Source of the DNA: Gemmatimonadaceae bacterium
Lineage (GTDB): Bacteria > Gemmatimonadota > Gemmatimonadetes > Gemmatimonadales > Gemmatimonadaceae
Assembly (NCBI GenBank): GCA_035253585.1
Contig: DATFBY010000094.1
Span: 1-24,000, forward strand
Direction: 5' to 3'
Length of the DNA stretch: 24,000 bases
In this document: positions 1,577 through 9,392 of the stretch, piece after piece
Layout: every line of letters begins with the position of its first letter
Position numbering within the stretch: the first letter of the stretch is position 1
Program-made: the position numbers and the translations under genes
The notes under the pieces: generated by a model
Told to the model about the DNA's origin: nothing
Database searches by the model: none
What the model saw: only the letters and a program-made list of their open reading frames with translations

Positions 1577-3442
1577 ATGGCGATCGATCTGGCTAAAGCC
1601 ATTGGCGAAGTCGAGGAGCGTTTGACCGCGCTCCGATTCCGCGCCTCCGGTGTCGATGTCCGCCCGGAATCCATGCTCGACGAAGTCGCGCAGCTCGTGT
1701 ACGAGGCGCGCACACTCCTCAAGCGCATCGCCAAGGTCGGTGCCACGACCGCTGTCGCGGTCGACCACCACGCCGAAGCTACGCCGCCAAGCGTCGAAGA
1801 CGACAGCTGGAGCGAGCTGCTGAGAGAGCCGTACTTTCGCACCGACGAGCACGGCATCGTCACCGCCGTGAATTCGATCGCGTGCGAGGCGATCAAGCTT
1901 CCGAACTACTTCGTTCTCGGCCGCCCGCTTTCGATGTTCATCACGATGGAATCGCGGCAAGCGATCCGAGCGCAGCTTATTCGGCTCTCGACGGTCGAGC
2001 GGGTCGACGGCGTTCACGTGAGTCTGCGCCGCCCCGCCGGCGGGCCGCTCGAGGGGAGTTTCTCAGCAGCGGCTCTTTTCCGCGACGGCATCTACGCCGG
2101 CGCGCGGTGGCTCTTCTATCCAACCGTCGAGCAGGAGGCCGCCGGCTCCTTTCCCGCAATTCCGCTTCCTGGAGAGAACGGTTCGAGACGCACCGCCTTT
2201 TTGGCGATGGCCAGCGGTATCATGTCCCGATCGTTGGACTATGAGGAAACGCTGGCCGCGTTCGCTACGATTTCGCTCCCGATGCTGGGCGATTGGTGCA
2301 TCGTCGACGTCATCAGCGAGAGTGGACACGTCCGTCGCGCGACGGTGACCTGCGCGCCTACCGAGCCGTTGGCCTCACGCATTCCACTCGTGTCTCGCGC
2401 TCCGCGCCTCGACACCGATCGCACCGCCATTGCCGAAGTACTGTCCGGCGGGCAGCCGCAAATCGTCCGCCCGGGAGCGACGGGCTTGGCCGCGTTGCTG
2501 GCAGCGACAAATGAGGAGCTAGAGCTCTTCATGGAGCTAGGCGTGACCTCAGCGCTCATCGTCCCGCTCACGGCACGCGGACAGACGCTGGGAGCCGTGA
2601 CCTTTCTGTTTGCGAGCTCACACCGACGGCACGGGCCCGCCGACTTAGCGCTGGCTCGAGAGCTCGCCGCGCGCGTCGCCATCTCGGCCGACAACGCACG
2701 ACTTTATCGCGAGGCGCAGAAAGCGAATCAGGCGAAATCCGATTTCCTGGCGGCGATGTCTCACGAGCTACGAACGCCCCTCACCGCCGTGATCGGCTAC
2801 ACCGAGATTCTTCAGGACGAGATCGTCGGCTCGCTGGCGCCAATTCAGAAAGAGCAGCTCTCGAGAATTCGTGCGAGCAGTGAGCACCTATTGGTATTGG
2901 TCGAGGAGATTCTCGCGTTCGCGCGGCTGGAGGCCGGCAGCGATCATCTGTCGTTGGAGCCGATTCGGGTGCAGGTGCCGGTCGACCAGGCCGTGACGCT
3001 GGTTGCCACTCAGGCGCGCGTGCGCCAGCTGTCAGTGGTCGTCGACGTCCCGGACGACACGCCGCCGTTCCTCGCTGATGCGGCGAAGGTTCGCCAGATA
3101 CTCGTTAACCTGATGGCCAACGCCGTGAAGTTCACTCAGGAGGGTGAGGTCGGTGTGCGCGTCCGCGCGACCGCCGAGTGGATGACGTTCACCGTATGGG
3201 ACACGGGCATCGGCATTTCGGCCGAGCACCTGAACCAGATCTTCGATCCCTTCTGGCAGGTCGATCAGAAAGCAACTCGCGCGTACGGCGGAAGTGGCCT
3301 TGGGCTCGCCGTCGTCAGGCGTCTGGCGCGGCTCATGGGCGGCGATGTCACCGTCAACTCCGAGCCGGGACAGGGAAGCCGCTTCACGGTGCGTCTTCCG
3401 CTGGCGGGCCCGCCTCCGCCGGTGGAGCGCGAGCTCAGGTAG
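1577..3442 (+). CDS. Soluble sensor histidine kinase: N-terminal helix, PAS-like, GAF, HisKA, HATPase_c; no receiver domain
   Basis: H-box SDFLAAMSHELRTPLTAVIGYTEIL. N-box QILVNLMANAVKF. G-boxes WDTGIGI and GGSGLGLAVVRRLARLMGG. GAF-like block ..LGDWCIVDV...ALIVPLTARGQTLGAVTF... No hydrophobic TM segments. Confidence 0.9.
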   Translation: MAIDLAKAIGEVEERLTALRFRASGVDVRPESMLDEVAQLVYEARTLLKRIAKVGATTAVAVDHHAEATPPSVEDDSWSELLREPYFRTDEHGIVTAVNSIACEAIKLPNYFVLGRPLSMFITMESRQAIRAQLIRLSTVERVDGVHVSLRRPAGGPLEGSFSAAALFRDGIYAGARWLFYPTVEQEAAGSFPAIPLPGENGSRRTAFLAMASGIMSRSLDYEETLAAFATISLPMLGDWCIVDVISESGHVRRATVTCAPTEPLASRIPLVSRAPRLDTDRTAIAEVLSGGQPQIVRPGATGLAALLAATNEELELFMELGVTSALIVPLTARGQTLGAVTFLFASSHRRHGPADLALARELAARVAISADNARLYREAQKANQAKSDFLAAMSHELRTPLTAVIGYTEILQDEIVGSLAPIQKEQLSRIRASSEHLLVLVEEILAFARLEAGSDHLSLEPIRVQVPVDQAVTLVATQARVRQLSVVVDVPDDTPPFLADAAKVRQILVNLMANAVKFTQEGEVGVRVRATAEWMTFTVWDTGIGISAEHLNQIFDPFWQVDQKATRAYGGSGLGLAVVRRLARLMGGDVTVNSEPGQGSRFTVRLPLAGPPPPVERELR

Positions 3443-5327
3443 TACGCTCGGGTTGTTGACCGTCGAGCTGTTCCATCGTGATGATGGCGCCGTCCACGGT
3501 GCCGCCGTCGTTGAGGAGCGGAAGCGTCGCCACTCTGCACGTCACCTGGCGCCCACGTCGGTTGATGCAGGGAATATCCGAATTGCCTGCGAACGACGCA
3601 TCGGCCAAGGCGTTTCGCAGCGGCTGCTTGAGCTGCTCCACGGGCAAGCCGACGTCGAGCGACAAGAGGTTTCGGCCTATCACTTCCTCGCGCCGCAGGC
3701 CCCAGAGGTCTTCGGCCCTGCTATTCCAGAGCAGCACGTCGAGCTCGCGGTCCACTACCACGACCCCGCCGCGCATGCTCCGGAGGATCGCCGCGAGCAT
3801 CGAGTTTGCCTGATTCAGCTCGTCGCTTCGTAGGCGGAGCTCATCGTTTATCGTCTGTAGCTCCTCGTTGGTAGAGTGCAGCTCCTCGTTCATCGTTTCG
3901 AGCTCTTCGTTGCTCGACTGTAGCTCTTCGTTGGTGGTCTCGAGCTCTTCCACGGTGGATTGCAACTCTTCATTCGTGGTTTCGAGCTCCTCATTGGTGG
4001 ACTGAAGCTCTTCGTAAGCGGCCTCCAGCTCCTGATTGGCGTGCTCCAGCTCTTGCTGCAGTCGCTTGAATCCCGTGACGTCCGAGAACGTGATCGATGC
4101 GCCGAGCAGCTTGCCGCCAGTCGTCAGCGGTGCGACGTACACATCGAACCAACGCATGTCGCCGCTGGCCACGGGCCATTCCACGGCGGAAATCGCCACA
4201 GCCCGGCCATCGCGATATGCCCGCTCCAACCGGGAGCGAAGCTCGAGTGGCTTGTACGATACCGTCAGGTCCTGAATCGGTCGACCGACGTCGTGCTGGG
4301 TAATGGAGAAGAGACTCCTCGAGCGTTCGTTCGCCAGCACCAGCACACCGTCGGCATCGACCACCAGCTGCGCGAGCGACGAGCTGTCGAAGGCGGCGTC
4401 GCGAACTTGCTCGCTGCCCCGCGCTTGAAAACCGTTGCCGGGGTTGTCCGCTTGCGCCATCAGCATGAAATGATCTCTCAAGTTGTGCTGACCCAGCTTC
4501 ATGGAGAGACGCCGCTTCAGATCGATGGGCGCAAAGAGGTCGCTGTGCGACAGCAATGTCTCGGCGCGGCCAAGGAACAGGACGCCGCCCTCCGAGAGTG
4601 CGAAATGAAAGCGGCCAAGGATTTTCGCCTGCACTTCGGCATTGAAGTACATGAGCGTGTTTCGACAGATGAGCACGTCGACACGTGAAATGGGCGCATC
4701 TTGAATGAGGTCGTGTCGGCCGAAGATGACCTGGCGCCGCATGTCCTTCTTGAAGACGTACTCGCCATTCACCGGATCGAAGTACTTTGCCCGCAACGTC
4801 GGCGGCACTGCCTCGACGTCGCGCTCGCTGTACACCGCCGCACGGGCTTTGTTGAGCGCGTTCTCATCTACGTCCGTAGCGTAGATCTTCACGCGATCCC
4901 GGAACTCCTGCGGCCCGAGCACCTCGGCAAGGATCATGGCGATTGAATACGCCTCCTCGCCCGATGCCGCGCCCGCGCTCCACACCCGGATGATCGACTG
5001 AGCCGGCCTGCGCTCGAGCAGCTGTGGCAGGACCTGGTGCTCGAGCAGCTGCCATGGCTCCGGATCGCGGAAAAATGACGTGACGTTGATCAGGACCGTA
5101 TCGAACAGCGCGGCGAACTCTTCCGGATGCACTTCGAGATAGTCCAGATATGCGCCGAAGTCCTGGACGCCGATCATCTGCATCCGCTTGCTGATGCGCC
5201 TGTGGAGCGTCGACCGCTTGTAGCCCGTGAAGTCGAACCCGCGAGTGCGCTTCAAGTACTGAAGAAGCGCCTCGAACTCGTGGTTGGTCTCTTGGCTCGA
5301 CATGGACACCTGCTTCCCGAGGCTCAC
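3435..5327 (-). CDS. CheR-type SAM-dependent protein-glutamate methyltransferase fused to PAS, an 84-aa heptad coiled coil and a second PAS
   Basis: CheR N-domain (FDFTGYKRSTLHRRISKRM). SAM-binding motifs (IRVWSAGAASGEEAYSIAMIL, ATDVDENAL, DVLICRNTLMYF). Two PAS-like blocks flank NEELQST-type repeats. The start is GTG 5327; the alternative ATG at 5303 (MSSQETNHEF) is equally plausible. Confidence 0.9.
   Translation of the reverse strand: MSLGKQVSMSSQETNHEFEALLQYLKRTRGFDFTGYKRSTLHRRISKRMQMIGVQDFGAYLDYLEVHPEEFAALFDTVLINVTSFFRDPEPWQLLEHQVLPQLLERRPAQSIIRVWSAGAASGEEAYSIAMILAEVLGPQEFRDRVKIYATDVDENALNKARAAVYSERDVEAVPPTLRAKYFDPVNGEYVFKKDMRRQVIFGRHDLIQDAPISRVDVLICRNTLMYFNAEVQAKILGRFHFALSEGGVLFLGRAETLLSHSDLFAPIDLKRRLSMKLGQHNLRDHFMLMAQADNPGNGFQARGSEQVRDAAFDSSSLAQLVVDADGVLVLANERSRSLFSITQHDVGRPIQDLTVSYKPLELRSRLERAYRDGRAVAISAVEWPVASGDMRWFDVYVAPLTTGGKLLGASITFSDVTGFKRLQQELEHANQELEAAYEELQSTNEELETTNEELQSTVEELETTNEELQSSNEELETMNEELHSTNEELQTINDELRLRSDELNQANSMLAAILRSMRGGVVVVDRELDVLLWNSRAEDLWGLRREEVIGRNLLSLDVGLPVEQLKQPLRNALADASFAGNSDIPCINRRGRQVTCRVATLPLLNDGGTVDGAIITMEQLDGQQPERTT
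3807..4058 (-). repeat. Coding 21-nt periodic tandem repeat giving 12 uninterrupted heptads (QQELEHA NQELEAA YEELQST NEELETT NEELQST VEELETT NEELQSS NEELETM NEELHST NEELQTI NDELRLR SDELNQA)
   Basis: On the + strand the hexamer ctcYtS (reverse complement of the xE-L codons) recurs exactly every 21 nt. Its positions are 3819, 3840, 3861, 3882, 3903, 3924, 3945, 3966, 3987, 4008, 4029 and 4050. Confidence 0.9.
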
Positions 5328-5403: not shown

Positions 5404-6489
5404 TCAGAGATTCGAACCCGCGTTGGGTTCCATTCCATTGACGATCGCGGTCGCATCGCTGTGCAGCCGCGCGGGATCGCGCGCGATAGATCCGGCGCCG
5501 CGATCCTGGGAGAGCACCGCGCGGATCGTTTCGGCATTCTTATGCGCGACCTCCGCCTGCGCCGCGAATCGTTTGGCTCCGAGTGCATTACCACGGGCGC
5601 GCATTCGCTCGGCGACGCTAAGGGACAGCGACATATTTTCCTCGAGCGCGCGAAGGGCGGTCCACAACGCGGCATCCAGCGTCTCGCCCGTCCGATTCAT
5701 CAGCGCATCGGTCGACCACGCGTGCCCCACGCGACATCGGAAATGCACGATGTCTCCGTTCCGCAGCGCATAGAGCGCTCCGCCGCAGTCGGGACAGCCG
5801 TAGCCGGATGGGGTGCCGGGACGCACTGCCTGCGTGATCGCCTCCGAATCCATTTCAGCGATGTCGGCCTCCATTTCGAGCTCTTCATCTTCTTCGGTCA
5901 TCGGTGCTCCATTGACGGCGACAGGCTCGTGTGCGAGCCGAGTCAGCAGTGGTCCTAGGTCCTTGAGCCGGACGATGTGGTCGACACCGACGCGGTCTAT
6001 GGCGCTCTGCGGCATTCCGGAATAGATCGCCTCCACTGGGTCCTGCGCGATTGCAACACCACCGTAGCGCTTGATGGCAGCCAGTCCCACCGTGCCATCG
6101 TCGAGGTTCCCGGAAAGGACCACGCCGACTGTCCGTTCCCGGTACGCCACGGCGGCGGTTCGGAAAAGCGGATCCACGGCCGGACGAAATCCGCTCTCGC
6201 GCGGTCCGCGTGTGATGCGGACGTGGCCGCGCTTGACGAGTAGGTGATGATCGGGCGGAGCGACGTAGATCACGCCACGCTCGATGAGCTCGCGGTCGGT
6301 CGGATACCGAGCGTGCAGTGCGCTGCGGCGATCCAGAAGGCTGGCCAGGACGCTCGGGTTATCGGGAGGAACGTGCAGGACGACGAAGACCGCACCCGGG
6401 AAGTCAGCGGGAAGTTGTCGCACGACGTCGATCAGCATCTCGACTCCACCAGCGGAAGCGCCGATGCACACCACGTCCCGTCCGGCCAT
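5404..6489 (-). CDS. CheB-like protein-glutamate methylesterase catalytic domain (no REC) with acidic linker, C-terminal zinc ribbon and helical tail
   Basis: Ser/His/Asp triad context: VVCIGASAGG, VVLHVPP, LSGNLDDGT. C-terminal motif GYGCPDCGGALYALRNGDIVHFRCRVGHAWS. The ORF track starts at TTG 6546. I prefer ATG 6489 because GAGGTG (6495-6500, minus strand) sits 5 nt upstream. Confidence 0.85.
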   Translation of the reverse strand: MAGRDVVCIGASAGGVEMLIDVVRQLPADFPGAVFVVLHVPPDNPSVLASLLDRRSALHARYPTDRELIERGVIYVAPPDHHLLVKRGHVRITRGPRESGFRPAVDPLFRTAAVAYRERTVGVVLSGNLDDGTVGLAAIKRYGGVAIAQDPVEAIYSGMPQSAIDRVGVDHIVRLKDLGPLLTRLAHEPVAVNGAPMTEEDEELEMEADIAEMDSEAITQAVRPGTPSGYGCPDCGGALYALRNGDIVHFRCRVGHAWSTDALMNRTGETLDAALWTALRALEENMSLSLSVAERMRARGNALGAKRFAAQAEVAHKNAETIRAVLSQDRGAGSIARDPARLHSDATAIVNGMEPNAGSNL

Positions 6490-6582
6490 CTCGCCACCTC
6501 GCGACGTTTGCTTCGCGCACAACTCGAGCAAACGCTGGTTCCGCAAGGCCCGTGCTTGATTGCAGGGTGCTTGGCTACCTTC

Positions 6583-7185
6583 CTACGACGCTAGCTGGAC
6601 GAGTGCTCCGGCGATCTCACCCGAGGCGAGTACCTCGTCAGCGGCGCCGGCCGCGATTGCGGCCAGCGGCATGCTGGGGAATTGCGCGAGGCTCGGATCC
6701 TCGACGATCACGAAGCCCCCGGCATCGTGGATCGCTCGCGCACCCGTCGCGCCGTCGCGTCCGCTGCCGCTCAATACGATTGCGATCACGTTGCGTTTGA
6801 ACGCCCGGGCCGCGGACACGAAAAGGGGATCGGCGGCGGGGCGGACGTGGTGCTCGGGCGGCTCGTGCGTAAGTGCCATCGTGCCGTTGCGCCGAATGAC
6901 GACGTGATAGTTAGGCGGCGCGACGTAGACGATCCCTGCCTCGAGCGTCTCACCGTGCTCGGCACGCTTGACGCTGCGTTTGGATGCTCGCCGAAGCACG
7001 TCGGCCAACGCCGACGGCTCGGCGCGGCTCACGTGCAGGACGATGACGATCGGTGGCTGGAAGAGCGAAGGCAGAGCCCGCAGAATTCGAAGCAGCGTGG
7101 GGAAGCCGCCTGCGGAGGCCGCACAAACGACCGCGCGCGGCTTTCGTGCTCGAGCCGATTCGAGCATTGACGCCAACTCCGACAT
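6583..7185 (-). CDS. Minimal CheB-like methylesterase, catalytic domain only (about 200 aa, no REC)
   Basis: VVCAASAGG, IVLHVSR, LSGSGRDGATGARAIHDAGGFVIVEDP and VYVAPPNYH are all CheB_methylest hallmarks. The alternative start ATG 7167 is preceded by GGAG. Confidence 0.85.
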   Translation of the reverse strand: MSELASMLESARARKPRAVVCAASAGGFPTLLRILRALPSLFQPPIVIVLHVSRAEPSALADVLRRASKRSVKRAEHGETLEAGIVYVAPPNYHVVIRRNGTMALTHEPPEHHVRPAADPLFVSAARAFKRNVIAIVLSGSGRDGATGARAIHDAGGFVIVEDPSLAQFPSMPLAAIAAGAADEVLASGEIAGALVQLAS

Positions 7186-9300: not shown

Positions 9301-9392
9301 GGGCCATCCGCCATCCGCCATCCGCCATCCGGCTATCGATTCGGCAAGCTCGCTTCGCTCGGATGGCGGATGGCGGATGGCCGATGGCGCCC
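9301..9392. repeat. Large inverted repeat made of tandem heptamers; probable terminator or REP-like hairpin after argS
   Basis: 4 x CCATCCG (9304-9331), a 28-nt spacer, then 3 x CGGATGG plus 1 x CCGATGG (9360-9387). The flanks are GGG and CCC. A pyrimidine/T-rich tract, CCCTTTCTTCCTTTACACTTTCTTC, follows. Confidence 0.75.

Follow-up and report, generated by a model that had tools for sequence, protein, structure and literature searches.

The methylation sites of methyl-accepting chemotaxis proteins (MCPs) reportedly follow a consensus of E-E-x-x-small-S/T. In the receptor Tsr the sites lie at the solvent-exposed heptad position c with Glu at the flanking position b, and the dense acidic residues destabilise the methylation-site helices (Flack et al., 2022; PMC9282233). 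In R. centenum, hybrids of the methylesterase CheB and the methyltransferase CheR are found apart from the che clusters, and those of P. inhibens show no co-regulation with che genes. The searchable literature mentions this CheB-CheR hybrid family only in passing and assigns no substrate to it. The present work concerns a relative of these hybrids in 24,000 nucleotides of a Gemmatimonadaceae bacterium (contig DATFBY010000094.1, positions 1 to 24,000), a stretch that is called the window below. The gene, here named CheR-PAS, is located at 3435..5327 on the minus strand and encodes 630 amino acids (aa) in the order CheR_N, CheR, linker, PAS, heptad helix, PAS, as seen from the open reading frame (ORF), the Pfam matches and a 100% match to the public protein P0001. 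Its heptad helix, referred to as the block, is on balance probably the methyl acceptor of the CheR in its own chain, which would make the locus a self-contained module of writer, eraser and substrate.

The block comprises residues 424-507 (window 3807..4058, minus strand) and reads QQELEHA NQELEAA YEELQST NEELETT NEELQST VEELETT NEELQSS NEELETM NEELHST NEELQTI NDELRLR SDELNQA. Twelve unbroken heptads at this place had been described in an earlier sequence-only reading of the window, and translation of the minus strand bears them out. The same is true for the pairs at heptad positions 2-3 (two QE, eight EE and two DE, with Leu always next) and for the location of the block between two PAS domains, assigned by Pfam as PAS_10/PAS_4 at residues 313-421 and PAS at 510-619. 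The consensus of the heptads is [N]-E-E-L-[Q/E]-[S/T]-[T]. Leu is the sole hydrophobic residue per heptad, acidic residues number 27 versus 2 basic ones in the 84 aa (net charge about -25), and heptads 1-10 contain no Lys or Arg. An exact periodicity of 21 nt at the DNA level had also been claimed. The phase is exact, but the DNA copies are not identical, and Tandem Repeats Finder found a stronger period of 42 in 3836-4039 (74% matches, 0% indels) next to the period of 21 (67% matches, 0% indels). The true unit is therefore one of 14 residues, NEELQST-NEELETT; within the repeat (window 3838-4039) these two heptads alternate, giving a super-period of 14 residues or 42 nt. The strict pattern [EQ][EQ]xx[ASTG][ASTG] fits seven heptads, starting at residues 432, 439, 446, 453, 460, 467 and 481. 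These seven matches, spaced by 7, compare with about 0.065 that the composition of the remaining protein would predict, and the pattern was matched nowhere else in the 630 aa. EELETM and EELQTI fail at the last position.

Homologues of the CheR-PAS protein number at least 8,000 and carry the JGI name 'two-component system CheB/CheR fusion protein'. For the locus scan one genome per species was taken, with peptide patterns derived from the block only, and 80 loci were kept. At least 578 genomic loci from about ten phyla encode the block, found in Actinomycetota, Cyanobacteriota, Gemmatimonadota, Chloroflexota, Acidobacteriota and Planctomycetota, and further in Myxococcota, Pseudomonadota, Campylobacterota, Desulfobacterota and Verrucomicrobiota. 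When 1.84 billion cluster representatives were searched exhaustively with HMMER, 2,497 clusters with the block were obtained at E<=1e-10, while a block-only search of a set of 5.8 billion proteins returned fragments of 100-170 aa only, which were uninformative on architecture. All twelve heptads were present in 97 of the 120 best homologues (55-67% identity overall), the central ones nearly letter-perfect, and most positions of residues 439-490 were invariant among 25 orthologues. When the alignment was widened to 80 sequences, taking in the fused CheB-CheR forms at ~30% identity overall, invariant columns were confined to the block. Mean column entropy was 0.415 bits for heptads 3-10, compared to 1.40 for CheR, 1.59 for CheR_N and 2.0-2.1 for the PAS domains. 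The block is thus the most conserved part of the protein, above the CheR catalytic domain, and since this holds across about ten phyla it is probably the enzyme's own substrate.

The distribution of this conservation along the heptad was uneven, with entropies of.57 at a,.25 at b,.14 at c,.17 at d,.54 at e,.42 at f and.81 at g. Position c, the second Glu, was the least variable, and the outward-facing b, c and f were among the most fixed positions, though such positions are usually free in coiled coils. Alignment of homologues for the EE register had been proposed as a check together with the original suggestion, and the register was kept, with E/E in heptads 5-8 in 80 of 80 sequences. At the codon level there was no such constraint. 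In 72 sequences all synonyms were used at invariant residues, including six codons for Leu and both TCN and AGY for Ser, and third-base identity at identical residues was 0.54. Free codon variation with fixed residues means that selection acts on the protein. Some heptads also have their own deviations which are shared across phyla (Tyr in heptad 3, Val or Ile in 6, Met in 8), and together with the free codons these rule out a cause at the DNA or RNA level, be it recent repeat expansion, gene conversion or a structured RNA. Searching the sequence against Rfam gave no match. A few homologues carry insertions in multiples of the heptad, namely P0008 with 16 heptads (+28 aa), and P0042 and L039 with +7.

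The block was closely coupled to CheR. A recognisable block was encoded in 79 of the 80 kept loci, and in 79 of 79 a CheR domain was found in the same or a frameshift-adjacent ORF. CheR-PAS-block-PAS was the architecture of 67 loci and CheB-CheR-block in one chain that of 8; the remaining 4 include a CheR-REC variant with no PAS detected and three frameshift splits adjoining CheR. In 72 of 80 loci CheB was either fused to the protein or encoded next to it, and three of the other eight are truncated by a contig end. CheR was also present in 12 of 12 cluster representatives whose sequence extends for 330 aa or more ahead of the block. In the fused subfamily, represented by L059 (Sulfurimonas), L064 (Sulfuricurvum), L071 and L079, the block is located ahead of PAS_10 and is separated from CheR by ~190 unannotated residues, in a variant that reads IEELETS NEELKST NEELQST NEELQST NEELETS KEELQSL. 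A kinase follows in the same chain in L059, and in an overlapping downstream ORF (PAS-HisKA-HATPase-REC) in L071 and L079. No MCP, CheA, CheW or CheY gene was found in the window. Two further genomes, one cyanobacterial and one from another member of the Gemmatimonadaceae, have cheB and cheR-PAS as well, and within 10 kb of these there was no gene for MCP, CheA or CheW.

Several proteins that appeared to carry the block without CheR were discarded as such. P0351 and P0256 come from frameshifted long-read assemblies with CheR just upstream, and P0241 and P0349 are unrelated low-complexity proteins. P0351 (L085 6001-7317) has a MerR-type helix-turn-helix after PAS-block-PAS, with the frameshifted CheR just upstream, and may be either a variant with a DNA-binding output or an artefact of an error-prone long-read contig. 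In P0308 an N-terminally truncated RQC domain is followed by PAS-block-PAS; this protein may be a rearrangement remnant or a chimeric assembly.

Both types of enzyme at the locus look functional, as judged from their domains and key residues. CheR_N (aa 17-68) and the S-adenosylmethionine-binding CheR domain (aa 81-271) are encoded at 4515..5279 on the minus strand, with Pfam E-values of 5e-18 and 1.5e-55 (PF03705, 65 bits, and PF01739, 188 bits, each against a cut-off of 27). The CheR part matched B. subtilis CheR (5ftw) at E=1e-38. In alignments to 5ftw and 1af7, residues R44, R87 and Y227 aligned with R53, R98 and Y235 of Salmonella CheR, and all three were invariant in the 25 orthologues. 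We take the Salmonella residues to be receptor-helix-binding and catalytic, roles that have reportedly been assigned to them. By these features the domain would be a protein-glutamate O-methyltransferase. It is joined to the first PAS domain by a variable tether at 4392..4514 (minus strand), predicted as disordered by AlphaFold2: pLDDT, the per-residue confidence of the model, was below 50 over the ~50 residues 254-304, and this linker had the highest column entropy of the protein, 2.93 bits in the 80-sequence alignment. The public NCBI entry P0001 ('CheR family methyltransferase', from a Gemmatimonadaceae metagenome-assembled genome) is the identical protein. The ORF of 630 aa opens at a GTG at 5327, while the NCBI model of 622 aa starts with a Met 8 residues later (window 5304-5327); owing to this, the residue numbers of the sequence-only reading differ by 8 from the public record.

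Directly upstream of CheR-PAS, on the same strand, are two CheB genes, neither with a receiver domain (REC). CheB1 (5404..6546, minus strand; Pfam E=1e-54) is a methylesterase domain without REC followed by a C-terminal zinc ribbon with four Cys and a helical hairpin, as read from the sequence and the AlphaFold2 model. CheB2 (6583..7185, minus strand; Pfam E=2e-53) consists in translation of a catalytic CheB domain of 200 aa only. The Ser, His and Asp motifs are kept in both, with a GAS(A/T)GG serine motif, and GASAGG, LHV and DDG in CheB1. The presence of two CheB genes had been described correctly, but rather than two paralogs they are the split form of one double-CheB protein. In 116 of 120 CheB1 homologues, mostly cyanobacterial, CheB, the zinc ribbon with hairpin and a further CheB form one chain of ~540-580 aa, and CheB2 corresponds to the second catalytic domain of this chain. 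The zinc-ribbon/hairpin domain was predicted confidently (pLDDT >90), and a PDB fold search with it gave no significant match. Its helical hairpin was considered as a basic partner of the acidic helix and rejected, as its net charge is about -1.

The AlphaFold2 monomer, built with 25 homologues, had a mean pLDDT of 73. The first PAS domain (aa 313-421, window 4065..4391, minus strand; PAS_4/PAS_10 in Pfam) has its predicted strands at residues 319-416, and the second (aa 510-619, window 3471..3800, minus strand; Pfam PAS E=7e-22) was likewise recovered as a PAS fold. Between these folds runs one unbroken straight helix, residues 418-517 (window 3777-4076), with pLDDT of 88-94 in the heptads. 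Conserved anchors in the two PAS domains were 104 aa apart in 187 of 200 homologues, and 111, 118 or 132 aa apart in the variants. As these differ by +7, +14 and +28 only, the heptad phase is preserved. The best sequence match of the block in PDB was a designed coiled-coil 'origami' protein, 8p4y, in which Asn and Leu of the N-x-x-L heptads align with Asn and Leu of the block. Designed coiled coils of this type presumably have Asn at a and Leu at d. With the same register in the block, which is read here from sequence, the Glu-Glu pairs would be at b/c and Ser/Thr at f/g of a dimer, so that the block would reproduce an MCP site both in linear consensus and in register.

The module that we propose would have the two PAS domains as sensor, CheR on its flexible tether of ~50 residues as writer, the CheB-CheB protein as eraser, and the helix of ~100 residues as substrate. 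CheR would act in cis, or in trans on the other chain of a dimer, and methylate the second Glu at b/c, with up to 8-10 Glu-Glu sites per chain exposed to solvent along an Asn(a)/Leu(d) coiled coil, and the REC-less CheB-CheB would take the methyl groups off. With a charge of about -25, one Leu per heptad and polar Asn layers, the unmethylated coiled coil is probably only marginally stable. Methylation could neutralise its outer face and thereby stabilise the helix and its packing, as has been proposed for MCP methylation helices, and the changed packing may alter the coupling between the PAS domains or, in the fused relatives, between PAS and the histidine kinase. The charge state of the sites would in this way set the geometry between the PAS domains. 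Because the CheB domains lack a phosphorylatable receiver, feedback would be expected to operate through conformation-dependent access of CheR and CheB to the sites.

The idea of a built-in substrate helix goes back to the sequence-only reading, and the comparative tests agree with it: the coupling to CheR and CheB, the conservation at b, c and f, the putative register, which would match that of Tsr, the conserved CheR residues, the tether, and the lack of MCP, CheA and CheW genes nearby. Shown directly are the pattern and its conservation, the link with CheR and CheB, the predicted unbroken helix and the enzyme motifs, whereas methylation, the dimer with its register, the change in stability and adaptation are our inferences. 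Several points weigh against the idea. The predicted structure is a single helix, while the usual target of CheR and CheB is an antiparallel four-helix bundle. In the Pfam scan at E<=0.01 there was no match to MCPsignal, and residues 420-510 matched generic coiled-coil families only, below threshold; a precomputed hit, PF28159, was considered as a dedicated family for the block and dismissed, since it is 'CEP89' and matches coiled coils generically. Only half of the upstream part of the 10-residue MCP consensus is matched, with Q/E at -5. The reading of the two N-terminal Gln as MCP-like sites is not supported, as they are at the first position of the pair and enteric MCPs are modified at the second. 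In the 80 sequences variation between E and Q was confined to the flanking heptads 1, 2 and 11; the central pairs were E in 80 of 80 and never Q, and the role suggested for Gln deamidation is therefore without support there. A different binding partner would explain just as well why every face of the helix is invariant. Pfam shows no output domain in the CheR-PAS protein, and the neighbourhood has no conserved partner gene; a histidine kinase is encoded within 8 kb at 25 of 80 related loci only. Finally, P0308 (L084 554-1891) is the sole block protein seen with neither CheR nor CheB on its contig, which is 2.6 kb long.

The continuous helix that joins the two PAS domains in the AlphaFold2 model could instead be a dimerising coiled-coil linker that transmits signals in the manner of an S-helix, with the substrate of CheR and CheB being elsewhere, in distant MCPs or in a partner kinase. 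We regard this as unlikely, though it has real points in its favour, as the spacing of 104 aa in 187 of 200 homologues with its variants of +7, +14 and +28 keeps the heptad phase as signalling helices do, and the block resembles only generic and designed coiled coils with no homology to MCPs. Such linkers, however, ordinarily conserve a and d and not b, c and f, whereas here c and b belong to the least variable ones, and the conservation of the block far exceeds that of the PAS domains that it would join. A charge of -25, with no salt bridges between e and g and with Asn at most a positions, is moreover a poor design for stability alone. A linker would also leave unexplained why the block is found only behind CheR and what the CheR on its disordered tether is attached to, and no other gene for a substrate is linked to the locus.

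An acidic helix that is itself unmodified could serve as a docking platform or pseudosubstrate for the basic receptor-binding face of CheR_N, for CheB or for a partner protein. Coupling to CheR and CheB and conservation of the outer face would also fit docking, the basic alpha-2 residues of CheR_N are conserved, and central pairs that are never Q agree with a binding surface which requires charge. Yet 8-10 identical sites exceed the needs of docking, the conserved catalytic residues of both enzymes imply real turnover on some substrate, and the CheB hairpin, which is not basic as given above, is no obvious charge partner; docking alone is accordingly improbable in our view. More improbable still is that the polyanionic helix senses pH, ionic strength or divalent cations, with protonation of the Glu ladder or binding of cations driving a helix or coiled-coil transition. 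The 27 acidic versus 2 basic residues in 84 aa, placed regularly at i and i+1 every 7 residues, would suit such a sensor, but there is no known cation-binding motif in the block and no direct evidence for the idea, and the link to CheR and CheB as well as the invariant Ser/Thr at f/g would be left unexplained.

A possible output partner of the CheR-PAS protein in the window is a GAF-HisKA-HATPase histidine kinase (1577..3442, plus strand; Pfam). The two genes are convergent and overlap tail to tail by 8 bp (3435-3442). Other genes of the window encode methylmalonyl-CoA mutase, ArgS, a riboflavin operon, NusB, HPr kinase and phosphotransferase system (PTS) proteins. Directly after the stop of argS (9294) there is a near-perfect hairpin of ~35 bp at 9303-9389, made of (GCCATCC)x4, 28 nt and (GGATGGC)x4, with a minimum free energy of -69.6 kcal/mol and z = -7.7. 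Built of heptanucleotide repeats, it likely serves for termination or regulation. It overlaps the ATG at 9370 of the next ORF, which encodes a PfkB kinase and probably has its true start further downstream.

The gene itself is ordinary, since the protein family is known and widely annotated. What would be new here is adaptation of the CheR/CheB type on a helix that is not an MCP and is built into the enzyme's own protein. In the searchable literature, with exact peptides included among the queries and subscription journals outside its scope, neither the heptad block nor any substrate of these enzymes was found to be described, while CheB/CheR-PAS/kinase proteins are annotated by thousands and their methylation target goes unnamed. 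If the block is the substrate, reversible methylation of glutamate would extend beyond chemoreceptors and would be a portable adaptation device for other sensors. It is quite possible, although we hold this tentatively, that a methylation memory module without MCP or CheA is widespread, comprising ~2,500 clusters in about ten phyla, in which CheR and a double CheB act on an acidic coiled coil of 8-10 sites in PAS proteins and PAS histidine kinases. Ordinary two-component sensors, and possibly one MerR-type transcription factor, would then have the kind of sensory adaptation that has been known from chemoreceptor arrays only. In the block one would also have a compact natural system that models how charge at many sites tunes a coiled coil, and the module could serve as a minimal unit of writer, eraser and substrate in synthetic signalling circuits.

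Compared to the systems that are already described, the block has most in common with the MCP methylation helices MH1 and MH2 of E. coli Tsr and Tar. It shares with them Glu-Glu pairs every 7 residues followed by x-x-small-Ser/Thr, a densely acidic outer face and the presence of enzymes of the CheR/CheB type. Unlike MCPs, the block has no sequence homology to the signalling domain, has 8-10 consecutive sites where MCPs have 4-6 over two helices, and is predicted as one continuous helix between PAS domains instead of an antiparallel hairpin bundle. It further carries Asn at a and Q/E at e, in contrast to Leu/Met at a and Ala at e in MCPs. E and Q commonly interchange in MCP sites but do not vary in the central sites of the block; and neither CheA nor CheW was found in the window or in the two other neighbourhoods. 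If the register is as read here, the pair is at b/c with the second Glu at c, as in the Tsr sites (PMC9282233).

The CheB/CheR fusion proteins of the KEGG type K13924 (CheB-CheR-PAS-histidine kinase) belong to the same family and share a variant of the block; in the present locus, unlike these fusions, CheB comes from two genes of its own upstream of CheR-PAS, and the CheR-PAS protein has no kinase domain. In enteric receptors CheR is said to be tethered through the C-terminal pentapeptide NWETF. As with this pentapeptide and its flexible arm, the enzyme here is held near a multi-site helix by tens of flexible residues, but the tether is covalent, disordered (aa 254-304) and without the pentapeptide. 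S-helices are reportedly ~40-50 residues long with a central signature of the ERT type. Like these and other coiled-coil linkers of PAS/GAF/HAMP kinases, the block is a continuous helix that joins two signalling domains and varies in length by heptad steps. It differs from the S-helix in being about twice as long (~100 residues) and extremely acidic, in having no ERT motif, and in a conservation that is concentrated at outward-facing positions. Designed parallel coiled-coil dimers such as 8p4y align with the block at the N and L heptad positions, whereas the salt bridges of Lys/Arg at e/g and the isoleucine at other a positions, by which those designs are distinguished, are both absent from it.

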